In this document: piece by piece, positions 1 to 63,500 of the stretch | Position numbering within the stretch: position 1 is the first letter of the stretch | Layout of the letters: each line of letters starts with the position of its first letter | Assembly (NCBI GenBank): GCA_036785375.1 | Contig: JAWMAR010000063.1 | Location: forward strand, 8,680,001-8,744,000 | Length of the DNA stretch: 64,000 bases | Reading direction: 5' to 3' | DNA from: Leucoraja ocellata | Lineage: Eukaryota | Made by a program: the position numbers and the translations under genes | The notes under the pieces: generated by a model | The model's database searches: none | Told to the model about the DNA's origin: nothing | What the model saw: the letters and a program-made list of their open reading frames with translations, nothing else

Positions 1-3000
1 TAGTCACATGTGATAGTAAAATATTCATATTCCTATTCCTAAATACATTTTAAAAAATCGCATGAGTATTAGTCACTTGTGTAATCGGTAGTGTGTGAGG
101 CCATAGCCCAGCTTGCCTCCTGTTTAACCATATTCAGATGTCCTTTCTCATGCTTTGCATCACACCATATGCTACTTTAGACAAATAGAACAGTTTTATA
201 GGCACACTAGGTAGCAAGTGAAAAATAAGTAAAATATGGGTGAATTTGCATTTTCATGTTTAAAGAAACCATTTCTTAAAATAGTCAAATTTAAATTTTC
301 CTGTGGGTATTTAATTCTATTGTTGGTGACACCGTACTCAATCCTGCCCTGTGATGTGGTTCAAATTTGGTTAATTAGCAGATTTCATAGAATAATATAT
401 ATCTGTTGCCATTTTCAATGTTACAGCTAGAAATAATCACTCGTCCATTTATTTACTTGTATTGAACTCAACTGTGCAACAATGCTTGTGTTCACTTGTG
501 GTAAATAGGGGTAACATTCAGTAAGAGTTGGCTTTTATTTTTGTTACAGTGCAATATATGTCACATATAATCATCAGCCTAAACCCACATAACATGGTTC
601 ATTAAAGCGTGCAAGTAATTATCTCAAGATTCATTAAAAAAAAACATTTTGGAGGAGTTTTGTTATTACCTAAAAAAAATAGGATAGGTTCCACAAAGGC
701 ATTTGTTCATTGTCATGATTGTAAAGTTTCAGGTATCACTATAAAGTGTATGCTAATGTATCAGATTGTAGTGGTACTTGGAGTGTTGTGTAAACGGGAG
801 ATAGATGTATTCTAAGAGGATGATCCTCCTGGCAAGGCCTCTGTAAACAGTGCCTTATTAAAGTAATAAAAGAATATCAGAGCCTTGAGCTAAGAAATGA
901 CACTGCCAAAATTTACCACAGTGCCATAATACTGGGTGGGTGGAATTTGTTAGGCCACAATTTATTAGTCTAATTTTAAATGAGTGCAATTTTTAATTGT
1001 TTATATAATGTGTAAAATCATCTTCATTTAGAATTTAATGTAAAAGAAACCGGAACTTCAAGAAATGCAAGACTTTTTCATTGTCAGAGCTGAACAGAGC
1101 ACATATATTTCATTTTGTTTTCCATCTGCAAGCCTTGTTTAATCAATTTGAACTTTGCAAAATGAAACCTACTCTCAAGCCAAGAAATTAAGAGTCGTTA
1201 CAAATAATTTGAATTGATGAAAATATACAGATCCATTTAAACTTTGCTAGTGTATATAATTTTATGATAAGCAATTGCAGATTATGAGTTTATAATACGG
1301 TCTTCCCTGAAGGCTCTTTTTAAGCCAAGCTAATAGTTGTTTCCCATTTTGTTCAAACAGGCAATTAAATAAATAAATAAAATTCCCTTTGGCATAAAAT
1401 AATGTTTCCCAATCATTGGATGAATAACACCTGCCGATCCTTACCAGCTCATTAGAAAAAATCTTGTTTGCAAAACCATGGTATATCATGTTCTTTTTTT
1501 AAAAGAAAAGATTACGGGCACATTTGTGGGACTTGCAGAATTGGCTAAAGATTTTGTGAAAGAAGCCCTTTTCCACTACATGTTTAAAGTGATCAGCCAC
1601 AATTAACGTACATTGGTGTATTACAGCCTTTATCAAAAGGTGACAAATAGTTTGAACAAAATTATCTTCATGGTTTTATTTCATGCCATCTCGTGCAGAT
1701 GGGAAGGTTGTTAAAATTATTTTTTGATATTTTGTCAGGAAAATTTAAAGAAATGTTAATGATCAATGCTAGTCTTATTTTTTTCATATTTAGAATATTA
1801 TGCAATGAATTTATTTTTTAATTGCCTTTTTCTATAATTGTTCCCAGAATTAAAATATAATTGTTAAAAATGAAAACCCCGATTATTAAAAAAACAAAGT
1901 TTTAACCAGGTGTTTCTCATTATGTGAATGGGAAAATAAAACGATGGTCACATTTCAAAGTGATTCTTTGAATGACGCTGATGAACGGCAGAAGTGCAGC
2001 AGGAATATTGTCAAGTATTACTGGTAATTAAAAAGCAACATGCAAGGTCAGCTTCAGTTTTTGCCAGAGAACTGTATGATAAAAATATCTTCACCAGCAA
2101 GAATGAAAGACTATTGGTTGCACATTGTTCCTAACCTCTCCAGCCAACGTGGTTTGCAGTTAATAAAATATTGCTTTTCCTGCTTAATTACTTTCTGAAC
2201 TATATTTACGACTCTAGTTCAATGCCAATTTTCTTCTGTTAACAACCTTAATTCTTCTTGCATTTGTACATGCTTTATGCTGAAAATCATCGCCTCACAT
2301 GCATACGCATGGCAACAGGGTCAAGACAATTAAAGGCATTTTTTTTTCAAGTTTTTGCGTGTTAAGGGCAGTAAATCCGTAATGTCTGACCGACATATCA
2401 TGTGTATCTCTGCACCAGCGGTGACGGTGTGCATTAGTTAAAAGATACTGCTTGAGGCCCTGCTAATATGTAAGTGTGATTGGACGTGTTTGGCTGTTTT
2501 AAGTGTAAAGATTAACAAGGGGAACAAAAGAAATGGAAACGTTATTTTTTTAAATCAACAATTTGTGGTGTTGTCTGATAATCGTTAAAGATAAACATAC
2601 TTTTTTTAAATGGCCTTTGTATATTGATTTTGGGTCACACTGAAATTGGTTCAACTCTAATATTTTTGTAGGATGAGTTGTATATATAAATTCTATATTT
2701 GTGTTGAATAAATATATATATGGATATACTTTATAGATCGCGTTGCAATCCGTTAATTTAACTGATGATCGAGCGAGATGGAGAATATTTGAATAAAACC
2801 ATTTTTTTTAAACTGTCCCGGATTGAACAGACTTGTGTTTAAATCGGAAATCGGGTCGTTGAATGGTCATCTGAACACCCTTACTACAATTTGGCACTTT
2901 AAACGCACAATAACCTTTGGGGTATCTGTAATTACGAGGGGGTGGTTCAGCGGCGTATGCTGATACAAGATCGCAGAAGGACATCTTCTCCGTCAGTTCA

Positions 3001-3647
3001 GCAGACAAAAAACGCGTAGCCCAGGTGAGGGTGAAGAGGAGACGACTGACTACGTTGCCGGGGGAGTGGGCAAAGTGGTCGAGTTTAAGTTGAAAAATGC
3101 AAGTGGTCCTGGCGCTGCTCAAGCTCAACAAAGGCCGACTGACTCGCTGTTTCTGATCAATTTAACCCGCCAAGAAAATACGCAGTGATCGACAAAACAG
3201 TCAAATAACGATCGATTTCAATTCGAATGCGATATGTTGGTTTGTAGTGAATATTTTGTTAAAAAGTATATATATAATAGGAGAAATTATAAAGGTTATC
3301 AATTGTGACGAACACATGAGATGCTTTAATCAGTTCTACGGTGAATGTGTTAATGTCAAAGTTGTTTTTTTTTGTTTTGTTCAAGAAAGCAAATTAAAAC
3401 AATGACGACAATTGGAATAATTAAAATATTAGTGGTTAGGAGATATTTTTTCTAAACCTTCAGTCGAGGCAGATCTTCGAACCAGAGAATAGATGTTTTA
3501 AAATCAAATGATGTTATGAAATATTGCCACCTGGGTTTAAATCTTCTAAACTAGGAAGAAAATAGCCAGCTATTGATGAGAAAACACAAGCGACTGAATA
3601 CAATTCCCGATTGCGGTGTTCAACTAGGGTTGAGGAAAAAGAGGTTA

Positions 3648-6650
<3,003 letters not shown>

Positions 6651-6808
6651 TATTAATATGTTTACATAGCTGACATAGCTTCATGGCAAAATACAAACGG
6701 TGTTTTCCTAGGTTAAAGCTCGACAAGCCTTTATTGTGGGATTTTTTGTCTCGACTATAATGTAAACAACTAGCCTGAATGAGACCACGACAACTTGGGG
6801 AACAATGA

Positions 6809-7150
6809 GAGATGCTGCTTGACCCGCTGAGTTACTCCAGTGTTATATGTCTATCTTCGGTGTAAACCAGCAGCTGCAGTTCCTTCTTACACAATAACTA
6901 AGAACCCCCTATCCCTGGATTCCCTCTCTCCTGACTCTCAGACTGAGGAAGGGTCTTTACCTATGCCTTTTCTCCGGAGATGCTGCCAGATCCGCTGAGT
7001 TACACCAGCATTTAGTGTCTAACCAGAAGGTCAGGTCAGACTGGGAGCTCATGGCCATTCAACATATAGGAAGGAACTACAGATACTGGGTTAAACCGAA
7101 GATGGACACAGAATGTCTGGAGTTAGTCCAGCTTTTTGTGTCTATCTTCC
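6809..7150. mobile_element. Cluster of Penelope-like (PLE) 3'-end fragments
   Basis: gagatgctgc..cccgctgagttactccag...cagttccttcttacaca units in both orientations. Confidence 0.75.
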
Positions 7151-7710
7151 ATCCAGCGTATAGGTGGGATCATTTCATACGTGGATCTTGGTGGACGTTG
7201 ACAATTGGATATGTTGCAAGGATGCACACACGTTCATAAATCTTATAACTGTGCTTATGATTAACCTTGCATTTTACATATATATTTATCGTGATGGTTC
7301 ATCATACCATTCAACTATAAATACACCAGATGATAAATGTTAACCTGCACGCGCTTGGATACATTCTGTGTGCAGCTTAGTGTATTTCATCTGAATAAGC
7401 GAACATGATTCTGGGTGTAACTTCAATAATGGCACAGCCGCCCACTCCATTATTTAAGGAGATCGTAAAGTGCCGTAATTTAAACCAGACGACGACAGAT
7501 TAAAAAAAAAGCGAAGTGGAGAGATAGGGAGGGAGATAACGGGAGAGAGAGAAATGATTATTAGCATCTTTCCAGGAATCAGGCAAGAACAGTTCTATCT
7601 ATCGTCCGTCATGAAGAACGCGTTCACTGCTGTTCGTGGCGCATTGAATTAACTGTGGCAGTCAATTCTTCTTTTGTGATTTCTTCGGCATCATACAAAT
7701 TCTTCACTGA

Positions 7711-7830
7711 AGAAAGACACACAAATCTGGAGTAACTCAGCGGGCCAGGCAGCAGCTTTGGAGAAAAGGAATCACTGTTACTCCAGCTTTTTGTGTCTAT
7801 CTTCGGTTTAAACCAGTTCCTTCCTACAAA
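7711..7830. mobile_element. PLE fold-back fragment
   Basis: ctggagtaactcagcggg followed by inverted gttactccagc...ttccttcctaca. Confidence 0.75.
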
Positions 7831-8660
7831 TTCCTCGCTGATTTCACTGCGCGCTTGTTTTCTAATTAAAGGCAATTCCTTCCCATCAGTGTCGTTCGAA
7901 ACCATTTGTTACAGAAATTCGTATCGTGCTTCAGCAGAAGGTCGGCGATCAGATATTCGTCCCTTTCAAATAAAAGGGTTGATTTTATTTGTTTACCCGC
8001 AGAATCAGCGTAATGTCATAAAATACCACTGACATCCCCTAAAAAGAAGCCTCCTCTAGATAGAACTATTCTGCAAACAAAAATAACCAGGAAGTTTATC
8101 ACGACAACTATTTGACTTTACTTCACTTTTTCCTCCCACCAATTACACATAATTTTAGAAAGCCAGGGGATCGGAATATTTAGAATGTCAGATATCTCCC
8201 CATGTAAATTGAAATGATGGTAGTGGTAAAATAATTGGTGAAACTGTTCATCAAAATAAAACAAACTACCCTGTTTCTATTTTTATTGGGCAACCGGGAG
8301 GTGCGTGTCATAAAAAGTGGGTTATTGAAAGAGTCCGCCTGCATTCTAGCAGTTCAGAATCAATCCTTGAATACACGGTTTATTCTGTTCAATGAACTCC
8401 CTGACATGTTCTGCTTTGCGGTGGCGGTGAATATTCACTGTGATTTCTTTCTGTGAGTTTCGCTCAGTCCATCCACTCAGGGCACCCTGACCCTTTCAAC
8501 CGATACTGACTTTGCAGAATATAAAGCTCCTTGTTTGAAATGACAGGGATGTAGAATGGTGACAGATTGTCTGTTAAGTGCGGTGTAAGACCTGTCAATA
8601 ACTTTCATCATAAAAATGCCCACAAGAATTTGCCATAAGCCGCGTGTTGTCAGTATTTGT

Positions 8661-8702
8661 TCTCTCTCTCTCTCCCTCCCCCTCTCTCTCTATCTCTCTC
8701 TC
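8661..8702. repeat. (CT)n-rich microsatellite
   Basis: tctctctc...ccctcccc...tctc run. Confidence 0.85.
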
Positions 8703-10438
8703 ACTGTGGTGATACCTGCAGTGGCGCTGAATCCAAAAACGGCCGGTCACTCTTGAGACACACCGTGTGCACTGCCCGGGTCTGATATTGTTCTCGTTCT
8801 GTGTGTTATTTGTAGGGCTCTCTCTGACTACAACGCGACTTTTGTTTTAATAGCGCTTTTACTGAAAATGACAACATATGGAACCGAATCCGCTGTTCGT
8901 CTCAACATTGAAATAACGGACCGTTTCCGCCAAAGAATTTCTACACTCTAACAAGTCCGCGCCCAGTTCTAAGGCGAGATTCTCACACTCCGCCAGAGCT
9001 GCTTACACTAGTGTTCAGACAGGAAACAGAAGTGTCTATATTTCATCAAACCCCGTGTATAAGGAACAACAGCGGCGTATTTTTTAAAGTTATTTATTTC
9101 TCTTTGGAGAATTCCTGTACAAGACGGCCAAACGAAATATCTAAGCCGACCTATTATTAATAAGGTAAACTGAAGTGAGGCGGTGGGACGCGAGTTACTT
9201 CAAGACTTTGGTGTTCGGTTGCCTGTGTTTGGCTGTTTACAGGACCTCTGTTCAGCCACGACCCACCTCGTGATTTTCAGCCCAAGAGATCCAAAGTGTG
9301 GATTTAACGAAAGCAACTCTCCCTGCTAGAAGTCACACACACCGATAGATGTCAATATTTCAGTGTTGTGAAATTAACACCTCGCATCAGTTTCCCTGCA
9401 ACTTCCACAAAACATCCCTGAAAACCCGATCTCCACGCCCCCTGTTTAGATTTTTTTTAGTGGTGGGATTTGATGTGGAGCTATGAGCATTCCTCGATGT
9501 TTCGGATAATGTAGCTGGTTTGTGAATATTGTTGCTGTCTGGGAATGCGATTTTGAATTTCAATTAAAAAAACAACAACTTTTTTTTGCATTTCAAATTA
9601 AAACATTTTTTTTTAAACTCATGATCGAATGTGAATTAATTCCGCACAGACCAGCCTATGCATTTTGAAAATGTAGACGCGTTTCATCAACCCTCTTCCA
9701 GAACAATTCAAACATACCAGGAATAGCATTTTTTGTACCCGTTACTATTTAATTATTGTGTGCTTTGCACTGGACAGTTAAGTCCTTTACAAAACCACGA
9801 AGGTCTGAAGTATTTCGCCACGCTCGACAGGTAAATCTACATTAATTCTGTTTTTCTCATCCGCTGGGCGTGGGATGAATCTGCAAATTATATCGGGGTT
9901 GCGCCCCGGCAAGGATTAGTTTCACTGGAGCCGGTAGCGATTCAGAACCGGCCACGCCAACGGTAAATGCACCCCCTGCAGTAACACTCTTTTGGATTTT
10001 ACGCCTTTGGAGTTCAACATATTTTTGCTGTTTTAATCATGTAACATATTTTCGAAAATGTTCCAATTCAAATTAAATATATATATATATAATTTAATAT
10101 ATCAATTGAATATATATAATTGAAACATTTTCAAAAAGATATTCCATAGTACCAGTGCAGCCACAATGACACATATTCCCTTGAAATATTCAATGCGAAA
10201 TTATTTGCGACAAAAAAAAGACTAGTTTGCCCGCACTGGGAGGACGTGGCCGTGTTCAGGAGTGTGTTTCCCAAGTGGGATGGTATCCTCGGGTGTTGAA
10301 TTGTCCGTCTGGAATGACGCGCTGTTGCCACTGGTTGGCGCCTCCGTTGTACAGATGCGAACTCTGTCTGCAAAACTCTCTGCCAGGCAATCCTAGTTGA
10401 ATCTACAAATTACTGCAGCTCAAACGCGGAATTAGTAC

Positions 10439-10537
10439 AAGGTAGACAAAAGTGCTGGATAAACTTAGCGGGTGCAGCAGCATCTAATGAGCGAAGGAAA
10501 TAGGCAACGTTTCGGGCCGAAACCCTTCTTCAGACTT
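10439..10537 (-). mobile_element. PLE 3' fragment with hammerhead-like core
   Basis: Minus strand GT-CTGAAGA-AGGGTTTCGGCCC-GAAACGTT-GCCTATTTCC. Confidence 0.8.
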
Positions 10538-10642
10538 AGTACATTTGGAAATTCGATGCTACTATCGATATTTCGGGCAATTCAACTTTTATAATGGCCG
10601 TTTTATAACTTACTGCCTGTTCTAGAACTTACTGCCTAATCA

Positions 10643-10644
<2 letters not shown>

Positions 10645-10675
<31 letters not shown>
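10645..10675. repeat. (AT)n microsatellite
   Basis: Perfect AT run. Confidence 0.95.
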
Positions 10676-10679
<4 letters not shown>

Positions 10680-10732
10680 AAGAATATATTCGAAATTCAC
10701 ACAAGCAGTTAAGATTCACATACGCCTTGTAT

Positions 10733-10979
10733 TTGCAAATTGGAGGAACGGCATCTCATATTTCGCTTAGGTAGTTTACACCCTAGCGGCATGAACATTT
10801 ACTTCTCTAACTTCAGATTTCTCTCTCCATCTCCTTCCCCTTCCCAGTTCTCCTACTAGTCTTTACTGTCTAAGACTACATTCTATCAGTCTGAAGAAGG
10901 GTCTCGACCCGAAACGTCGCCCATTCCTTGTCTCCAGAAATGTCGCCTAACCCGCTGAGTTACTTTTTGTGTCTACCTT
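10733..10979 (+). mobile_element. 5'-truncated Penelope-like retroelement: GIY-YIG C-terminus plus hammerhead-like core, 10-bp TSD
   Basis: 10737-10817 reads KLEERHLIFRLGSLHPSGMNIYFSNFR, matching the PLE endonuclease end. Core at 10891-10918. CGCCTTGTAT at 10723-10732 and 10980-10989. Confidence 0.88.
10888..10922 (+). ncRNA. Minimal type I hammerhead ribozyme-like motif
   Basis: CTGAAGA, extra A, stem II GGGT-CTCG-ACCC, GAAA, CG, TC. Stem I is only ~2 bp and stem III is palindromic (ACGT). Confidence 0.55.
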
Positions 10980-12785
10980 CGCCTTGTATATCAGTTGTGC
11001 ATTAAACTTCTGTACGTGAATATAAATCGACACCGTGACTCTCGTATCTTATGTACGCGACATGTAGATGTTACCAGAAGTGCGGAAACATCGAAACAAT
11101 CAGCATGCTTGCAGCGCCAATAAACACAATTCACTCATTCATCGACACTTTTTACTTCTAAGTTTAATTTGTGGGCGTTGATTGATGGTCAATTTTATTC
11201 GAGTGAGTGATATCGAAATTCACGCGACTACAGAGACCAACTTGACCTCTCCTCCTTACAGCCAGAGTGTTAAATACAACACAATTTAGATTAAAGGATT
11301 GACAAGAAACACGTATTGGGACCCAAAACAGGTAAATGGGGGTAGTGCAGAGTGTGGCTTGAAGCTCGGCATGGATATGATGGGCCGAAGCGCTTGTCTG
11401 TGTTGCACTGTGCACACTTGAACTAAATTAACGTATTTGCAATCTCCGCACACGCTTATATAAAGGCAAGCGTTTCAGAATTGAATTTCGCGTCGAGAAT
11501 GGATGTGGGATTGTTGTCCCTCTTGTAACTTCGGTGATTGTCCAGCAGAGGCCCTGATGTTGGCTCGAGCTAGATAGTCCCTCGATGGGAATGTAGGGAC
11601 ATTAGGAGGACTCGACAGATACTGACTATTGCCGGGCATTGTCTAGAGAGGCGGGGAACTGGGTTCATTTTTTTTATTTGTCTTTGTCGAAAGAAAAAAG
11701 TGGAAAGTCTGCAATTAAACTCCATCAACCCCCCCCCCCCCTTTGCCACCAGATCAATTAAACCGACAGAGGAGCGGCAGTATATAAGAAATATGAGCAG
11801 TGGTAATGTTTAAGGAACATTTTCAATGTGAAGTATCTTAAACAACCTAGTCGCACTGAAGCTCTAAAGGCAATCCATTCAATAGAATATTCTCATGATA
11901 AAATTGAAATGAGTGATGATGTGTTATTGGACCACTTATGGAGTGTTCTGAGCATGTTATTGTCCACCATGTTTGCATTTCAAATCCACCTGCACATTCA
12001 GAAAAATACTAGAATATGGAAAAGTTGGCAAAAGTGAAAAGAGTACTGATTATTATTTGTATAAATTATATGCTCCTCTAATGTTGAATAATTTAATGGA
12101 TCAAATATATTCATTGTTGTACCAATTCTTGCTAAGACTCCAATAACAACATAGTTGCATTTAGCCCATAAAAAGTGTACTTCAAGTGCTTTTCTTTAAA
12201 TCGAAACATGCATAGGCTGAGTCATGTAAGGAGATATTACAGCAAGCAAATAAAAGCTTAGTTAAAGGTAACTTCTAAGACAGTGTGAAAGCAGTGAAGA
12301 TGCAAGGCTATTTAGGGAGAGTCTTTGAGAAAACGTTGAAGATACGGCTGCTAATAATAATGCAAATAGATTAGGGATGTAACTCAGTCATTGGTATGGA
12401 CTTAATGGGCCAAATGACCTCCTTATATGTCATAAAGAGATTTAAAATATGAAAAAAGATTCTTTATTTGGCACAAATGAAGTGATATTGAAGGACGATA
12501 TGGATTAACTCAGATAGTTTTGACAATAAAATCGAGAATTTTTAAATATAAGCATTATTTGATCAGGTGCTAATGAATGTCAATGATCGTAAAGGTGATG
12601 TTTGAATGAGACTTGGTGTTTTAGGATATGCACAGAAGGGTTTTAGATGAACCAGTAAAGGCCTGGTCCAACAGCAGAGGCAGAACGGGACAATGATGTG
12701 GAGACATAAATGATTGTGAACTTCTATAATGAAGAGGATGTGAGCTCAAATAGACACCAAATTTGTTAACTACCTTATACGTCTT

Positions 12786-13138: not shown

Positions 13139-13372
13139 TAGAAACAAAGAACTGCAAATGCTGGCTTATACGAAAGTTAGACACAATGTACTGGAGTAAT
13201 TTAGCTGGTCAGGCAGCATCCCAAGAGAAAAAAGATGGGTGACGTTTCGGGTCGGGACCCTTCTTCAGACTGAGAATGTCTGAAGGGTCCCGAGTCCCGA
13301 CCTGAAACCATCCATTTTCTCTAGAGATGCTGCTTGACCCATTAAGTTGCTCCTGCACTTTGTGTCTATCTA
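13139..13372. mobile_element. PLE inverted pair with intact hammerhead-like core on minus arm
   Basis: gggtgacgtttcgggtcgggacccttcttcagac (13237-13270) followed by a degenerate forward arm. Confidence 0.85.
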
Positions 13373-13725
13373 TTCAACCACCAATTTGCACTTCAGAATA
13401 GAACTTCAGTTCCACCCTTTCAGTTTTGATCTATGTGCTGCTTCTAAAGGGAGCTCTCATTCTCAATGGAGCAGCAATTAGAGATGTCCACAGCATTACG
13501 CTGCTGACAGCCTTGGTTAAAAGTGATGAATGAAGAAGCTTCATAAAGAGCATCACCCGAGGTGCTCCTGCAGGTATCAGAGAATAAAGCAAAGTGATTG
13601 AAACTGACATTTTCATTTGATATGCTGCCATATACTAGAGGCATGCTGAGGTCAGGGATCTAGTGGCTGAATGATAGCTAACTAGTTACAAAAAAGAGAA
13701 CATGGGTTAAGCAGACCAGAATGAA

Positions 13726-21672: not shown

Positions 21673-22184
21673 AATACTGGGAGGAAACTGTCATTGCCAC
21701 TCATCTGACTTCCTACGTGAGCCTGCAAAATCAATTCACTAATTTCACAGTCTAAGGGCAGAAGCAAATCAAACAATACATATTCAGAAGTGGAAATATT
21801 CTGTGGATTAAAATTAATATTGTGCATTATTTTAATAAAGGAATAATTGCACTCAATAGTTTTATATTGAGCTATGGATCTTGGCCAGATTTCTTCCTTT
21901 CCCCATAGTATTATTCATTATACATGGAGTCAGAACATTTGGTGGATGTCATTATCTCCATTCACTATATCAAGCAATTCAATACATTCACTTATGTCAA
22001 TATCACTAATATTTCATCCTTAAACACTGTAGCAGTGAAATGTTTGATACACTATAGCTCAAGGCACAGTCCAGTATCCACTGTTAGTTGCTTCAAAGTT
22101 TAGTGCCCCCCTCAGCATTCAAGGAACCTTGGTGTTTGTGTTCCCAGAGCCTTGGGAATCTGACAGGACCACACCCAAAGATGA

Positions 22185-22570
22185 GCGTAGGCACAAAATC
22201 CTGGAGTAGCTCATCGGGATAGGCAACATCTCTGGAGAGTAGGACTAGGTGATGTAACTCTTCATCAGACTGGAGAAGGGTCCTGACCCGAAATGTCACC
22301 CATACCTTTTCTCCAGAGATTTAACCTGCTTTCTGATGGAACGCTCAATACATCACACATCACACACACACGTCACACATGCATTGAGGATAGAGGAGAG
22401 ATGACAGCCTTGCATGTAGAATTATACCAAGCCGATTATCCTACAAACCTCGACGTCTTTGGAGTGTGGGAAGAAACCGGAGATCTCATGCAAGTCACGA
22501 GGCGAACAGGATCCAGGCCGGGTCTCTAGTGTTGTATGGCATCAACTCTATCGCTGTGCCATCGTACCAC
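22185..22570. mobile_element. PLE inverted pair (22185-22325) and SINE fragment (-, 22425-22570)
   Basis: gactggagaagggtcctgacccgaaatgtcacc core; gtctttggagtgtgggaagaaaccggag SINE body. Confidence 0.7.
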
Positions 22571-44654: not shown

Positions 44655-45760
44655 ATAGTTTAGTTTGGTTTAGTGATACAGTACGGAAACCGGCCTTTTG
44701 TCCCACCGAGTCCGTGCCAACCAGTGATCCCCACACACTAACACTATCCTACACACACTAGGGACAATTTACAATTTTTACCAAAGCAAATTAACCTACA
44801 AATCTGTATGTCTTTGGAGTGTTAACCAGAGTGTTAATCCTGGCCAAATTGGAGAGGCTAGGACTTTAAAATGGGGTAGACAAAAATGCTGGAGAAACTC
44901 AGCGGGTGTGGCAGCATCTATGGAGCGAATTAAATAGGCTGAATTAAAAAATAGAATTAAATTTAATAGAATTAAATCGAGCCGAAACTCTTCTTGCTTC
45001 AGGGCTGCTGGGAGATTTGGTCAATTTGGAATTGCTCTCTGCAGAGCTGGGACAAGCTGTGGAGTGGTTCCAGTGTGTCTTGAGCCTAGATACAATTTGC
45101 AAGAAAAGAATAAGAACATCTGCAGACCCTGTCAATTAGGTGCAAAATGCATAGAATGGATTGGATGGCTGCAAACCAGACATACACCTTGTAAATAATT
45201 GTAAATAATGTTGCAGATTTCGACTTTGCCAAGTGTTGATTGGATGAGGTATTGAGCCTTGTCTGGGTTTCTGGCAGATCAGGGTAAATGTTTCTGTTGG
45301 CTTCCTTGCGAAGTCCGGTTTGAATACAATGTATTGAGCTGCTGTATTATTGGGTTAGGGAAATGTCTGTTATGTATGGGGTTAATCGATATCTGTAATT
45401 GGATTATTAAGAGACCACCCCCATGTGGTTCGGCCCCTCGAGGTCCCGGGACATATAAAAATCCGCTACCACGAGGTCCAGGGTCGATCTTCTGGGAGAG
45501 CGCTTGGGACTGCGTGATTTTGTAATGCGCTTTTGTTAAAATAAAGATTAGTTGTTTCAAGTGCTTGATTCAGTGTTTTAACTGAAACTAGACTGGGGGG
45601 AGCTTAGTAACGAGCAATTTACAAGAGCACCTGGAGCAAAACCCACGTGGTCGCAGGGAAAAGGTACAAACTCCATACAGACATCACAGGTAGTCAGGAT
45701 CAAACCCAGGTCTCTGGCGCTGTAAGGCAGCAACTCTACCGCTGCTCCACCGTGCCACCG
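44655..45760 (-). mobile_element. HE1-like SINE split by a solo LTR
   Basis: Tail at 44655-44831; body and head at 45624-45760. Confidence 0.82.
44832..45623 (+). mobile_element. Solo LTR (Gypsy or class I ERV type) with nested PLE fragment (~44875-44995)
   Basis: TG...CA ends (TGTTAAT/ATTTACA); TSD AGAG at 44828-44831 and 45624-45627; TATAAAA 45454-45460; AATAAA 45540-45545. Confidence 0.82.
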
Positions 45761-47560: not shown

Positions 47561-48003
47561 TGGCTGTGGCCAAACTGTCGCTGTGAAAGTTAGCAAAAAG
47601 TGGAAATTAAAATGAAACTGAACGGGGATCTGGGGTTCTTTGTAATGGAATCACTGGTGAATATCTTATTCATGATCAGAAATTGATGATGTAGGGCATT
47701 CACTCTCTTTGTCTTCATTCTCCTCCTGCCAGCAGTTGCTCACCATAGAATTCATAGCAAAATGTAGACCTAGCAGTAGGCAAGACAATGTAGCATGCTG
47801 CGGAGCACCACAAATATTTTGTGTCCATCCTGCTGAGTTCTCAGAAATTCTCCAGAATAGTCCAAATGACAGAAATGTTATTCAGCACTGAGATTATTTG
47901 GCTGCACTCTTTTGCGCAATAGTGTTGGTGCTACCCAACTTCCCAACATGTGCATGGGTCACAGACTTTGGTCGTGAGTTGTGTGAGAGCGAGAAGCCAC
48001 TAT

Positions 48004-48170
48004 CAGTCTGAGGTAAGGTCCCGAACCAAAACCTCGCCTACTCCAGTCTGAGGTAAGGTCCTGACCTGAGACGTCACCTATCCCAGTCTGAAGAAGGTTC
48101 CTACCCTGAAACATCGCCTATCCATTTTCTCTGGAGATGCTGCCTGACTCGTTGAGTTGCTCCAGCACTT
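48004..48170 (+). repeat. Tandem trimer (40-nt period) of hammerhead-like core, followed by PLE 3' sequence
   Basis: Units start cagtctga at 48004, 48044 and 48084. Confidence 0.88.
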
Positions 48171-49147
48171 AGTCATAGAGTCATAGAGAGTCATTGAGTC
48201 TCTAGGCGCTTTGGCACAATTTGCCCATGCCGACCTACATGCCCCATCTCCACTAATCCCTTTGTGGCCTTTTTAGTCAATATCTCCCATGTTTCTTGTA
48301 CTTACAGTGCCTCACGTTCATGTGGTATGGTGAGCCGTCACAAAATGAAACCATCAAGGCCATTGCCTGCGTAATGACCATTAAAGTGTACAGTTCCCAG
48401 TGACTAGTTATATCACTGCTTAATACTGAGGTGATGGAAATATTGTAAATTGGAGAACCACAGTATGTTGGCATTTGGCTCCTGAAAGCCACACACATAC
48501 ATCCAATGGAACCCTACACTGTGTCAAAGCAAGCAATTCTTGCAAGATGAAATGAAATATGGTTATCTCCCTTTGAGCAAGTTTCGGTGACATTCCTTAT
48601 TTAACCATGGACTGAACATTACGGTGAAGTTCCAAATATAGTTCCTCAGTGTGGTTACCTTGTCAAGCACTCAGCTGTAAGGGTACAGTTGTAGCCGCAA
48701 CAGGTGGTGTATTTCAGTGAAGACATCCTAACAGAGATAAAGATGGTTAAGGGACTTTTTGCTGGGGTTTTGGTGGATTACAGGTGAGAATACTCCTCCA
48801 CTCAGTTCAGTCAGTTTGCTCTCTATGGGCATATAGACATATGAATTAGTAGCAGGAGCAGGCCACAGCTTCATCAATCAGCTTCACCATTTAATAAGAT
48901 CAATCAGCTGATCTGATTGTAACCTTAACACATTCTCCTCTATTCAACGTAACCCTTCATCCTATTACTTATCATGTATCAATCCATATGTAAGGACTCA
49001 GCTTCCAATGAAGAGCGTTTCTAAAGGATTGGGACCCTTTGCGGGAGTAATAATGACTGATTTTTGTCTATCTTGGGTGACCTTTTAGTTTTAAACAGAC
49101 ACTATTTATTCTGTCTCTCAGCATCTTGAATATTTCAATCTATTAGG

Positions 49148-49425: not shown

Positions 49426-49767
49426 ATTTGAATCATTCAATCAAGTCATCTCTCACTCTTCCAAATGTCAATGGGTGCAGCTCTTCCAATGTCTATCCAG
49501 CTCTTCTCTATAAGATAACCCACCCATTCTGGGCATCGGTCTGCTGAACCTTTTCCGAACTCCTTCCAATTGATCCAGAAATAAGAAAACAGATTATTTT
49601 ACTTTTCTTGCTGAAGTTGAAAAGAAATGCTTATAGTGCACTCATGTCTCGGAATAACTTATTTGTGTAGAAAACCGGAACTTAGAATGAACTTAAACCT
49701 GAACTTAAAGTTGTTCAGAAGGTGACAACTCTACAGGATTTGGCAACTTTAAAGTGCTCCAGACATC

Positions 49768-50392
49768 TGTAGAACAATATGGACAGTTCACAAAAAGCAA
49801 CAATTGCTTGTTGTGAGTAGTTGATGACTCCTATAAATAGCACTGATGGGGTGACGTGCAAGCTATAGAACCGATGTAAGAGTGCGCAGGAAGAAAATGC
49901 AGATGCTGGTTGACATCGAAGATAGATACAAAATGTTGGAGTAACTCAGCGGGTCAGACAGCTTCTCTGGAGAAAAGGAATAGGTGACATCTCGGGTTGA
50001 GACCCTTCTTCAGACTGAGAGTCAGGGGCGAATGAAACTAGAGGTATGAAAGGTGCAGAACAAATCAGAGCCGGCACTGATGACTCGGGAATGGTGGAGC
50101 CCACAATGGTCCATTGTTGGCTGTGGGCAAGGTGATAATGAAGTGATACAAACAGTGCATCTAGCAGACGTCTAAGGTAGGGGAGAGAAAGAGAGAGAGG
50201 GAAAGCAAGGAGTTTCTTGAAATTAGATAAATCAATATTAATGCAAGGATTAACCAGCATCTACAGTTCCTTCCACCACATGTAGACTAATATGGGCAGT
50301 TTACGAAAAGCAACAACTGCTCATTGTTAGTGGTGGGTGACTCCTTTAAATAGCACTGTTGGGTGACCTTCCAGCTCTTGCACAGATGTAAG
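49768..50392 (+). repeat. Diverged ~112-bp direct repeat (49768-49880, 50281-50392) bracketing the PLE
   Basis: tgtaga..aatatgg.cagtt.ac.aaaagcaacaa.tgct...tgactcct.taaatagcactg.tgggtgac...gatgtaag in both copies. Confidence 0.88.
49881..50280 (-). mobile_element. PLE 3' region (ORF end INIDLSNFK, UTR, core) with short inverted terminal piece
   Basis: ORF 49946-50260 remnant; core with GAGA in place of GAAA at ~49985-50013. Confidence 0.85.
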
Positions 50393-51142
50393 TGCCAGAA
50401 TACTGAGCTGTGGTATTGTAGAGCTGGCAATAAATACTGAATACCGACCAATGTCGCAATCTGCACATTTTAAGAGGCCATTCATATAGCAGACACCAAG
50501 GCCTTGGCCAGGACAATGGGCAGCCAGACCTACACCATCGATGCATACTGATACAGTGAAAATATTGGTGTCATCTTGCTATGAAGGTTCTGTGCTCATT
50601 TTGCCGCGTTAAAATGACTATTGAAATAGAAGTTATAACTGTACACGTTGAACCTGAATTAAATTCTACTGTTTGCATTTGGTTGTTAAATAGATGGGTT
50701 AAAAGATGTTAAAGTAGCACAGATAGCGATTTACATGGAGAGAGCAACTTTACCAATATTTCTCCTGAATTAAGGAAGCTGCCAGTTCATTTATCTCACT
50801 GCTCCCCATGTGATTTTTCAATGCACTAATTGGCAGCTGCATTTCCCCAGGTTACAACATTATCTGGAATTATTTGCTTGGCTGAGGAACTTTTCCTTAC
50901 TTGCTTATTTACTTGTACATTAGAGCTTTCCATCTACAATGTAGCCTTAGGCTGCCTAAAATTGAAAAGAAGAGACTGGGTGGATTCTGGTGGTGACGGT
51001 GAACCTGCACAAGTCACATTTAGCATGAGTCATTGACCTTATGCAGTAACATGGTTGTGAATGTGGTGGTTCATGATGCTTTGGAAGATTTCCAAATACA
51101 TTCATGACTTGAAGTGATGTGAAAATATTCTCCAATGTGGAT

Positions 51143-51600
51143 TCTGATATCCTCCTGATCTCAGAGGCGACCAAAAACATTGGAACTGACAGTGCCGTGG
51201 GAGGACCGTCTGGAGGAGGCCCACGAGAGGAAGATGACCAAGTACAAAGAGCTGGTCATAGACTGCCGTAAGCAGGGCTGGAAGGCAAGGTGTATGCCCA
51301 TCAAGGTTGGCTGCAGAGGTTTTGCTGGGCAATCACTCGACAAAGCCTTGAGTGCACTGGGCATCAACGGAATGGCGAGGAGAAGAGCCATCAAGAACAC
51401 CACAGAGGCAGTGGAGAAGGCCTCGAGATGGCTCTGGATCAGGAGAGAAAGTCCATGGGGGGGGAACGAATGCCACCTGAACACACGTCGTGGTCTGATC
51501 AACCACGGCTGGGTGAGGGTGTCTGATGTTGAAAGACCTGAAACACCCAGATTACATCACTGATGATGTGTTCAGCAGCATCAATAGATGTCATTTTTAT
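51143..51600 (+). mobile_element. HERO/NeSL-type (R2 group) non-LTR retrotransposon 3' end, restriction-like endonuclease
   Basis: SDILLISEATKNI, frameshift, then ELTVPWEDRLEEAHERKMTKYKEL...PIKVGCRGF...ASRWLWIRR. Confidence 0.88.
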
Positions 51601-55286: not shown

Positions 55287-56104
55287 TCAAGCATCACCTC
55301 TTGAAAATCTTCAAATCAGTGCTTAAGTTGCAATGTTGTGAAATAAAGTAATTGGAGCACAAGATGATATATTTGGGTGTCCAGTTGGATGTAGATAGGC
55401 TAAGACAAGAGCAGGGAAATTTGCCACCTACTTTAATGTGAGGAAGCAAAATAACATTTCAAAACGTAATTTGTTTTTTCTGAATATCTTTCAATGCAGC
55501 ATGTGATTTTTGTCAGATCTTCTACACCTTAATGCTTGTTCATAATCATTTTGGAGAGAAGAGCCATGGAACTGAAAACCATAGATGCAACAGTGCCTTA
55601 TTATGTATTTATTTTGATTTCAAAATGAGCATTGAGGCACTTGTGAAATGCATCTAATTCCAGGACCAGTACATGCATTGTGCATGTGACGATTGTGGCA
55701 TGAACTGACAATCAATCACACAATAATGTCCAGGGAGCATGAATTTGTGCCCACCCAAACCCTCGTTACTGTGGAAAAGCCAAGCACAAATTGGATGATT
55801 CATAAGTACATGAGTGATAGGAGCAGATTTAGGCCATTCAGCCCATCAAGTCAACTCCGCCATTCAACCACGGCTGATCTATCACTCTCTCCTAACCCCA
55901 TTTTCCTGCCTTCTCCCCATAACCCCTGATCCCCGTACTAATCAAGAATCTATCTATCTCTGCTTGGCGGAGCACTCTGTTCAGTCCAAAAAGAAGACCC
56001 TGAACTTCCATATGTTTCCACGTTAGTGCCTTGTATTGATTATAATTCTCCATCTTACTCTTATTCTGGCCTGGCTTTCTTTGGCTACACCGTTCCAATA
56101 AAGT

Positions 56105-56188
56105 AAACTTGAGGAACAGCACCTCAACTTCCGATTACCAACACTGTAGCAATTGAGGTCTGATATGAAATTCAACCTTTTCAGATGA
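56105..56188 (+). mobile_element. Degenerate PLE GIY-YIG C-terminus
   Basis: Reads KLEEQHLNFRLPTL*QLRSDMKFNLFR*, similar to 10737-10817. Confidence 0.7.
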
Positions 56189-61790: not shown

Positions 61791-63314
61791 ATAGGTTTGT
61801 AAATAGTTGGCAAGCCATGAGGTACGGAAAGAGAGGAGTCACACCAGTGAGTCTGAACAAAGTGGGAAGGGATAGAAGTGTGGCAGAGTTCCCAAAGAAG
61901 TGTCAAGTAAAAATGGAAGCCAAGTATTGTAGTGGCTGGAGTCCAAGGAGATGTGGCCAAAGAGTAATGGAGTGAGTAATGGAGAAACATTGCAGTTACG
62001 TCACAGGCTTAACATGGCCTGAGAGCTGATCTGCTTGTTGGTGGCACATAGGTCCTGGGAATGGCTTCAGGCAGGAAAGGATCTCCCTTCTCCTGACCAC
62101 TGCTTGTAGTGGGACTGTAAATTTTGCACTGAATAACCTGAATATGCTCATTAGAGCTCCTCAATCAGGACAGTTTCTCCTGATTTACAGCCAGCATGTA
62201 TTTCCTCTTAAGAGACCCTGTTGCTTCTTCGTAAACTCAGAGTGACTGTGCTTTCTAGGCTACTAATGTACCCACCCCCACATCCCCAATACCACAAATA
62301 ATCCTGTAGGTTTTTGAGTGCAATTATAGGTCAAGGCTAAAATATCTGAATCGATTTTTCTTTTGGCTTATGTAAAAGAGTGAATGAATAAGAATTGGAT
62401 CTTTAATTTATCTAAATGCTATTTTAGAATAATTGTTATTGCATATTTCAAATAGATTGAATATGCAACTGACATAGGGCAGATTCATGGCCCTATGCCC
62501 TGAAGGAACAACAGATTGATTATGCAAGTCGTGGCTCAGTTGTGCATGAGACCCATGATCTGGAATTCCATGTTGAAACCATCAAATGAGCTGTAGAGGG
62601 CAGGCCAGTAGGCTGGATGAAGATGCAACTGGAGTTTGACTTGGAAGTGACTACGTGTTTAGTCTGCTTCTTAGTCTCTCGAAGTGACTGATTGAGTCAT
62701 ACATTCTGACAGTTTACAATCAGCAAGCTCATGAATAGCAGCCAGACATGTGGAACGTGGCTCCTGATCAACAGAAGTAATTGTGACCAAGAATGAGTAA
62801 TAATAAAAAGCAGCCCCATGAGGAACATATTGATCACTTTCTAAAAATCATCTTGCACGATAGCATTGTCAATGTACTTCCAATGGACTTGTAGGGTCTC
62901 ATAGCAAGACAAGCATAATCCACACCAATATTTTTAAATAAACCAAGATAAATGCCTTTTCTTGTATAAATAGTAAGCTAATGAAAACTATTAATCAAAA
63001 CTGACCAATACTCTTAACAGTGATAGTCTTCACGTTGTAAATTGGTCTGTGAGCTGATCTTCCTGCATTTACCTCTTCTTGTTAAGGGCACATACGCCCC
63101 TGGAATGTTGGTACAGGTGGGAATACTCGTGATGCTACACACCATTCAATGAGCAGGTGGGTCGATTTCTAGATGTAAATATCCAAAGACTCATTACTTT
63201 GGGTGTGAAGTGTACAGTTTTTATAATTAATTGAGAAATGAGGAAATCAAATTTTAATGCAGAGATCCTGCAAGCCCATTTAACGGTGGAAGGGAGTACC
63301 CAACAATTAAGGGG

Positions 63315-63500
63315 AAACAAGGAACTGCAGGTGTTGGTGTGACAAAAAAAGACAAAAAGTGCTGGAGTAATTCAGCTGGTCATGCAGCAACGCTGAAGAA
63401 CATGGATAGGCAATGTTTCGGCTCAGGATCCTTCTTTGAACTGAAGAAGGACACCCGAAACATCACCTTATCCATTTTCTCCAGAGATGCTGCCTGACTC
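63315..63500. mobile_element. PLE inverted pair
   Basis: gtttcggctcaggatccttctt followed by ctgaagaaggacacccgaaacatcacc. Confidence 0.82.

Follow-up and report, generated by a model that had tools for sequence, protein, structure and literature searches.

The window analysed here, a single stretch of 64 kb, carries at 10733-10981 the 5'-truncated end of a Penelope-like element (PLE), bracketed by 10-bp direct repeats. The following parts were assigned to this insertion.

10723..10732, plus strand: target-site duplication, left copy, assigned from the direct repeat and its rate in random windows
about 10733-10735, plus strand: 5'-truncation point; contig pieces of the family start at 10734-10740
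10734..10817, plus strand: last 27-28 codons of a PLE GIY-YIG endonuclease, 74% identical to the protein P0008, with no stop directly after
10818..10888, plus strand: pyrimidine-rich 3' UTR or pseudo-LTR, read from the letters, with CAG immediately 5' of the hammerhead core
10889..10920, plus strand: minimal type I hammerhead with a 2-bp stem I, the full core, an extra A, a 4-bp stem II and a palindromic ACGT replacing stem III
10921..10981, plus strand: conserved 3' part of the pseudo-LTR in the short, tail-less form, from the alignment (ending at profile position 104 of 139)
10980..10989, plus strand: target-site duplication, right copy, the first 2 nt of which may be element-derived

The sequence-only reading of this locus had described an insertion bounded by a target-site duplication (TSD) and holding a PLE endonuclease end followed by a hammerhead core, and every part so described was found. 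The direct repeat CGCCTTGTAT occurs at 10723-10732 and again at 10980-10989. Among 20000 random 247-nt windows, with 3 nt of slack, repeats of at least 10 bp at both ends were obtained in 6 and repeats of at least 8 bp in 40. The length of 10 bp given earlier is correct for the repeat but is not fixed for the duplication: because 2 nt at the start of the right copy agree with the family's 3' end as well, the true duplication is 8-10 bp, and 8 bp plus microhomology would fit equally well. The core begins 73 nt after the peptide frame 10737-10817, close to the spacing of about 75 nt first proposed. Relative to the window consensus of the family, the focal copy differs in 7 of 89 columns and has in addition a 6-nt deletion; this deletion, together with several letters unlike the family majority, lies in the 3' part at 10921-10981. 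The CAG just 5' of the core may represent a 3' splice-site-like element. A pyrimidine tract and CAG upstream of the core were present in three of the seven arms examined, and a retained spliceosomal intron is known from some PLE pseudo-LTRs.

The PLE identity was borne out by the encoded peptide. The frame at 10737-10817 encodes 27 residues with the conserved end ...NFR; no stop follows NFR in the focal copy, and the frame continues to a stop at 10857-10859. The peptide corresponds to residues 343-369 of P0008, a protein from Mobula with reverse transcriptase (RT) and GIY-YIG domains, at 74% identity over 27 aa. Seven matches to the peptide were obtained among 1.84 billion representatives, six of which carry the stretch at 58-74% identity, five of these six being labelled skate, ray or whale shark (Rhinoraja, Hemitrygon, Hypanus or Rhincodon). 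The seventh, P0002, was an unrelated repeat protein and was set aside. A 60-residue region of one match led to P0008 and to P0009 (Chiloscyllium), in both of which the RT motif YIDD is followed by a GIY-YIG domain; the E values for PF01541 were 4.6e-4 and 4.6e-3, respectively, both below the curated cut-off. The earlier term "GIY-YIG tail" was thus upheld by homology to P0008 and not by Pfam profiles, as the 35-aa frame of the focal copy matched 0 families. The arrangement expected of EN+ PLEs, a C-terminal GIY-YIG domain behind the RT, was seen via the P0008 homology only. Comparison of P0008 with PDB sequences gave one match (E 0.67), which was irrelevant.

The linker of P0008 is of the form CX4CxxC, and two Cys lie between its GIY and YIG. 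The CX2-5CxxC linker, the two Cys and the CCHH motif are marks of the Neptune and Nematis PLEs (PMC8557442), so that the Neptune-clade marks found in this homologue, which lies outside the window, are shared with Nematis. Neptune is deemed the likelier clade because Neptune and Poseidon were found, and Nematis was not, among the vertebrates of a 2026 preprint (bioRxiv 10.64898/2026.07.22.740005). No RT or GIY-YIG catalytic motif of the element occurs within the 64-kb window, the focal copy being truncated, and the clade assignment therefore rests on the homologue from another species.

Three of the peptide matches are odd ends of predicted host proteins. The PLE tail starts or ends the predicted skate or ray proteins P0003, P0004 and P0006, labelled neuromedin-U receptor 1, VKORC1-like 1 and ATP synthase subunit C3-like, as a result of either exonisation or an annotation artefact. 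Family fragments inside predicted host proteins confuse gene annotation.

The endonuclease tail and the hammerhead were linked in one further copy.

49883..50279, minus strand: second copy with endonuclease tail and hammerhead, in which the UTR leading to the hammerhead region and tail is longer, with an inverted tail piece at its 5' end

This second linking copy (50016-50242, minus strand) supports the earlier proposal that the abundant short repeat of the window is the hammerhead-bearing 3' end of a PLE. Its endonuclease-tail remnant at 50216-50242 (minus strand) gave a tblastn E value of 8.8, which is weak alone. The copy is flanked by a direct repeat of about 122 bp (49763-49889 and 50278-50399, about 80% identical), which is either a target duplication of unusual length or a duplication of local origin. 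A more decayed endonuclease-tail remnant, with 46-48% identity and one stop, was observed at 56102-56185 with no hammerhead region after it.

The core of the focal motif consists of CTGAAGA at 10891-10897, the extra A at 10898, GAAA at 10911-10914, CG at 10915-10916, T at 10917 and C17 at 10918, and stem II is formed by 10899-10902 and 10907-10910 with a 4-nt loop. The cleavage site predicted after 10918 agrees with that of the sequence-only reading. All core features of the PLE minimal hammerheads (min-HHRs) are present, namely CUGANGA, GAAA and UH, the extra base after position 9, the pair G10.1-C11.1 and the palindromic 15.2-16.2. The typical helix I of 4-5 bp is replaced by a stem I of 2 bp, G10889-C10920 and the wobble pair U10890-G10919; the family majority at 10919 was A in all four sequencing runs compared (54-75%). 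A strict descriptor, requiring the full core, a G-C-closed stem II and the palindrome in place of stem III, matched three times in the window (10891 plus, 13268 minus and 10533 minus) and 0 times in 200 order-1 Markov shuffles of the 64 kb.

Covariance models and covariation gave no such support. No Rfam hammerhead matched in the window at the gathering score, and none was among the eight weak matches of a local search at E up to 10. Covariation of the stems was also lacking, with 0 of 6 pairs changed on both sides in 18 arms and 478 of 500 shuffles reaching the score, in a test of low power as the arms are closely related. These results would suit a motif that is merely hammerhead-like in this PLE family, being a structure for protein binding or RT initiation, or else a relic without catalysis. 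The short stem I, compared with 4-5 bp in the Schistosoma min-HHRs (PMC4209133), and the insertion in vitro of an anole PLE unaffected by hammerhead mutants (PMC11167929) point the same way. Such a relic or binding structure was nevertheless considered unlikely, since the motif lacks none of the defining core bases or PLE-specific extras, and the core columns are more conserved than others across subfamilies. Furthermore, a 2-bp helix I is on record in the Penelope of D. virilis (PMC4209133), and the anole motif cleaves once PLE protein is added (PMC11167929).

The excess core conservation expected from the earlier reading was found, with 157 of 168 core cells conserved compared to 1075 of 1294 other non-CpG cells (p 3e-4, 18 arms that are not independent). 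This excess points to constraint on the subfamily founders rather than to selection on inserted copies. After insertion the motif decays, the CpG of stem III being changed in 11 of 16 arms. A helix and hairpin considered for the pseudo-LTR downstream of the motif were rejected, with 84% of cells paired but 0 of 10 pairs covarying. A degenerate motif pattern matched 0 stretches in metagenome contigs, and no P0008 relatives were found in viral contigs. None of 29 metagenome loci related to P0008 had the motif behind the endonuclease end, so that no distant sequences were obtained for covariation. One descriptor match was seen among these loci, on the opposite strand of L013 (1615, minus strand): a minimal hammerhead with a 7-bp stem II, a 4-bp stem I and an AT palindrome, with a PLE-like RT piece on the other strand.

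The requirement for a dimer, proposed from the outset, is consistent with the motif itself: there is no loop between C15.2 and G16.2, and stem III could therefore form only between two motifs. The published PLE min-HHRs showed no activity as monomers and little as dimers (PMC4209133), the dimer model is set out in a review (PMC6765202) citing Lunse et al., and the anole PLE motif was cleaved only with PLE protein and was not needed for insertion (PMC11167929). The focal motif has no same-strand partner nearby. In its predicted monomer fold, GGGU pairs with bases 3' of the cut site and stem II is not formed; the probability was at most 0.03 for stem II and at most 0.003 for stem I in all four folding contexts. 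Thermodynamic folding likewise missed the hammerhead in the other two intact copies and thus does not single out the focal copy as dead. Activity of the focal copy, with its 2-bp stem I, lack of covariation and a predicted fold other than a hammerhead, found no support and was deemed doubtful; the copy is most likely a dead fossil.

The earlier description of the locus was right in parts and missed the inverted neighbour, the RUNX-antisense orientation and the CpG-rich domain, which are given below.

10440..10535, minus strand: separately inserted 96-nt copy from a sister subfamily, flanked by an 8-bp duplication of its own (10432-10439 and 10536-10543), passing the strict descriptor
5400..5675, minus strand: RUNX-family exon with the proximal start codon at 5675 and the first part of the Runt domain (PF00853, E 2e-14; RUNX1 chain match, E 1.5e-34)
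3687..3866, minus strand: next Runt-domain exon (PF00853, E 5e-32)
2001..12000, no strand: CpG-undepleted domain holding the focal copy (observed/expected 0.85, versus 0.36 for 12001-64000)

The neighbouring insertion starts at the first base of the hammerhead stem I and is inverted relative to the focal copy. Its motif has an intact core with U at position 17 and is sense to RUNX. In a plus-strand transcript containing both copies, 29 of the 32 bases of the focal motif were predicted to pair with the neighbour at a probability of at least 0.96 (z -8.9), and the neighbour would sequester the focal motif in any plus-strand transcript starting upstream of it. The residues of the RUNX gene at 3687-5675 presumably indicate RUNX3. 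The RUNX exon on the minus strand likely sets the direction of host transcription, and the focal motif is antisense, and the neighbour sense, to this gene 5 kb away. Given the upstream P1 promoter that is also used for RUNX in the elephant shark (PMC3974841), the focal site probably lies in the first intron or the upstream region of RUNX. A distal (P1) first exon was not found using a 4-residue start motif. A 56-aa exon-like frame after AG was also observed in the CpG-rich domain at 10222-10392 (minus strand), and no homologue of it was found.

All six consensus CpGs are kept in the focal copy. For the arms inside the domain, 16 CpGs were kept and 3 had decayed, compared to 47 and 42 outside (Fisher p 0.02, with 18 other changes set aside, arms treated as independent and one consensus used for several subfamilies). 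The non-CpG divergence of the arms was similar inside and outside the domain (13.6% versus 15.8%). Two of the three intact motifs lie within 2001-12000. Low CpG decay would be the simplest reason for the intact focal core, and germline hypomethylation of the RUNX domain may be deduced from this pattern.

Four of 24 sequencing runs, three of DNA and one of oligo-dT RNA (5% of the run), were compared with the locus at 85% likeness. A contig of organism B spans the right junction with 45 letters inside the element, and a contig of organism C spans the left junction with 31 letters inside; a contig of organism E has 28 letters inside, which is below the bar for a shared junction. No empty site was seen among the 15 of 67 joints listed. 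The insertion is common to at least organisms B and C and is thus older than the split of these organisms. Sharing with these organisms fits either age or retention. The lack of core differences among those listed was not counted, since 85% likeness favours matching copies. In the oligo-dT RNA (5% of one run), 15,811 reads fell on the element, 99% of them running into other sequence, with both directions about equal. No reads fell on the unique flanks and no pile-up of molecule ends was seen, which is weak evidence from 5% of one fragmented run. The pattern fits passive transcription of many copies, and rare cleavage is compatible with it. RNA editing, suggested by A>G and T>C places commoner in the RNA than in the DNA runs, was rejected because C>T was also elevated and the records are of different types.

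These data bear on whether selection has maintained the focal hammerhead because its RNA is active or regulatory at the RUNX locus. The palindrome and each of the 11 core positions have survived, the motif is one of only three intact motifs in 64 kb, two of which lie 350 nt apart near RUNX, and the insertion is common to related organisms. Selection is considered very improbable even so: the focal motif is antisense to RUNX and open to sequestration by the neighbour, the remainder of the copy has decayed, low CpG decay accounts for the core, and the RNA run, weak as it is, shows neither flank reads nor an end pile-up.

The wider family was studied with a repeat profile built from 14 window copies, whose 139-nt consensus begins at the ribozyme and is blind to unknown UTRs. 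The search gave 34 arms totalling 2844 bases, or 4.4% of the window, and none in the reversed window. Twelve minus/plus neighbours stand head to head, comprising 11 single compound loci and the focal copy with its separately inserted neighbour, and a partial tandem lies at 6808-7022; the tandem or inverted arrangement of pseudo-LTRs, a trait of EN+ PLEs, is thus present. Duplications of 9-16 bp surround four of the inverted loci, a length of at least 9 bp being reached at 3.5% of random sites with an equally loose search. The 3' ends of the arms cluster at profile positions 98-109 and 133-137, which corresponds to the optional tail of 30-40 bp, and the focal copy represents the tail-less form. 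Inverted copies and a one-sided tail of 30-40 bp are on record for PLEs (PMC8557442), and in the anole element two RT start sites define a tail (PMC11167929). Three tandem 40-bp units with broken-core hammerhead regions were observed at 48003-48173, where cis dimers would be allowed; back-jumps of 33-45 nt like those of this triple were rare and occurred in all three DNA runs.

Copies tend to begin at the 5' edge of the ribozyme, not at the cut site. Nineteen of the 34 arms begin at profile positions 2-7: an inverted arm adjoins 10 of these, unique upstream DNA adjoins 4, 3 continue into UTR, and the other 2 are internal units of tandems. At 10885/10886 the summed contig depth climbs 121- to 227-fold. 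Loose ends with low agreement (0.31) occur before 10888-10889 in all four runs and are AT-rich in the DNA runs, as for unrelated flanks. A start of copies at the cleavage site was also considered and dismissed, because remains of the motif persist upstream of the candidate at 44875-44939 and no such boundary was among those listed in the runs.

The clustered starts, the depth step and the AT-rich ends could mean that most short arms belong to a non-autonomous, SINE- or retrozyme-like unit (the hammerhead and some 100 nt, alone or paired in inverted orientation) that amplifies by itself with PLE proteins rather than arising by separate truncations, the focal copy still being an ordinary truncation. 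The duplication around the neighbour at 10440-10535 indeed encloses a unit starting at stem I, and the 2026 preprint derives animal retrozymes from PLE pseudo-LTRs (bioRxiv 10.64898/2026.07.22.740005). Against such a unit, the 11 inverted loci differ in their junctions: gaps range between -18 and +20 nt in 10 of them, and arm starts lie between 2 and 105. The arms at 13140-13392 resemble different subfamilies, and together these points suggest repeated independent formation. In addition, the depth step comes partly from subfamilies with other UTRs, UTRs unknown to a profile starting at the ribozyme are invisible, and no promoter was identified. An amplifying unit of this kind was accordingly judged improbable.

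Per Mb, the window density amounts to 47 strict motifs and to about 300 arms bearing a motif. Extrapolation to 2.2 Gb, the size of the little skate assembly (PMC10115646), gives about 10^5 strict motifs and about 6x10^5 motif-bearing arms. In the three DNA runs, contig depth summed at the motif exceeded that of the unique flank by a factor of 5x10^5 to 1.2x10^6, a ratio that is not a copy number. A genome-wide count of 10^5-10^6 for the family would follow, of which the order of magnitude alone is claimed. For comparison, up to 120,000 retrozymes are reported in the axolotl (PMC7229834). Several other dispersed repeat families of 150-290 bp were noted in the window, e.g. 18295-18461/23076-23242, 54069-54237/55794-55960 and 35652-35919/52655-52909. 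A 134-aa frame lies at 51159-51563, for which the Pfam match was weak and unrelated; we take it to resemble the end of a non-LTR element of HERO/NeSL type where the restriction-like endonuclease lies.

The consensus contains only two odd near-palindromes of 4+1+4, one of them at the 5' edge of the ribozyme, and 3 of the 11 inverted junctions overlap on these two. Inverted pairs whose arms overlap on the near-palindromes were observed at 7067-7157, 22184-22320 and 63313-63500. The anole PLE protein cuts and extends both strands (PMC11167929), and annealing of two oppositely primed cDNAs would explain the overlap at these junctions, 3 of 11 being a small sample. As a tentative proposal, rather speculative at present, genomes of the skate and ray type may carry the densest known hammerhead load among vertebrates (about 10^5 intact and 10^5-10^6 in total), the shapes of the copies recording how they were inserted. 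Reverse transcription would stop, or oppositely primed cDNAs would anneal, at the TCAG-T-CTGA near-palindrome at the ribozyme 5' edge, giving head-to-head pairs whose ribozymes are silenced by folding of the pair into a long hairpin. PLE inversion is described but not explained in the papers cited here, and twin priming was not mentioned among the literature matches listed on Penelope inversion. If the near-palindrome proposal is true, PLE inversion becomes directly testable by genome statistics.

For the focal copy, we are confident that the 5'-truncated end of a Neptune-type PLE was inserted by target-primed reverse transcription and is now a fossil, its core kept by low CpG decay. To the observed anatomy, homology, duplication, orientation and CpG pattern this reading adds an insertion mechanism and an inactivity that we infer, and dependence on a dimer and on protein is carried over from papers on other PLEs. 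The Neptune-type element would have inserted a copy of its 3' end, leaving the duplication of 8-10 bp. Reverse transcription would have started at the inner of two start sites, yielding the tail-less form. It would have run through the uncleaved hammerhead and the UTR before ending about 28 codons inside the endonuclease. The founder hammerhead most likely worked only as two motifs paired via their ACGU palindromes, probably with the help of the element protein. The inserted copy, with no open reading frame, no nearby same-strand partner and an orientation antisense to the likely host transcript, would then have become a fossil. CpG decay, which breaks the palindrome in most copies, would have been low in the CpG-rich RUNX domain, allowing the focal core to survive.

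A single locus of this kind matters little, since the retroelement is of a known ribozyme-bearing type and the copy has decayed. It is a warning that a ribozyme core may look "intact" through preservation without selection if it lies in a CpG-rich domain. With hundreds of arms per megabase, elasmobranch genomes provide a very large sample for PLE questions, including the role of the hammerhead, the cause of inversion and where reverse transcription starts and stops.

Among known systems, the non-LTR retrozymes (PMC7229834; bioRxiv 10.64898/2026.07.22.740005) share PLE-related type I hammerheads in short repeats. They are tandem arrays with complete motifs, whereas the focal copy is solo and has a coding remnant. 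A minimum of two successive units bearing complete hammerheads characterises a retrozyme, and the only tandem triple of the window, at 48003-48173, fails the descriptor. The preprint reports hammerhead tandem repeats in one chondrichthyan (bioRxiv 10.64898/2026.07.22.740005). The present family was undescribed among the matches listed from open-access literature on hammerheads with Penelope, sharks, skates and cartilaginous fish.

PAc, the Poseidon element from Anolis (Frangieh et al. 2024, PMC11167929), is alike in having a hammerhead in the pseudo-LTR, two RT start sites defining a tail, uncleaved RNA as the template and no RNA-seq ends at the cut site. It differs in clade, and its activity was assayed with protein, whereas the focal copy is known from sequence alone. 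The Neptune-clade EN+ PLEs (Craig et al. 2021, PMC8557442) share with the homologue P0008 the C-terminal GIY-YIG, the CCHH and the CX2-5CxxC linker, and with the family the heavy 5' truncation, the inverted 5'-truncated copies and the one-sided tail of 30-40 bp. Unlike them, the focal copy retains only 27-28 codons, and Nematis, which bears the marks of the linker and Cys as well, is a possible though less likely placement.

The closest likeness is to the min-HHRs of PLE pseudo-LTRs, a feature class already described in 2014 (Cervera and De la Pena, PMC4209133), to which the focal locus adds an elasmobranch PLE min-HHR. Shared features are the full core, the extra base between 9 and 10.1, G10.1-C11.1, the palindromic 15.2-16.2 without helix III, the place behind the endonuclease, and the many solo copies and opposite-strand pairs seen in the family of this window. 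Helices II and I differ, with 4 and 2 bp in the focal copy compared to 7-8 and 4-5 bp in Schistosoma. The host of the focal copy is most likely an elasmobranch, as the labels of the peptide matches indicate, and elasmobranchs are unmentioned in the portions of that text and supplement searched. The copy number inferred for the family lies far above the hammerhead figures given there, which are about 4,000 for the coelacanth and about 9,000 for Xenopus (PMC4209133).
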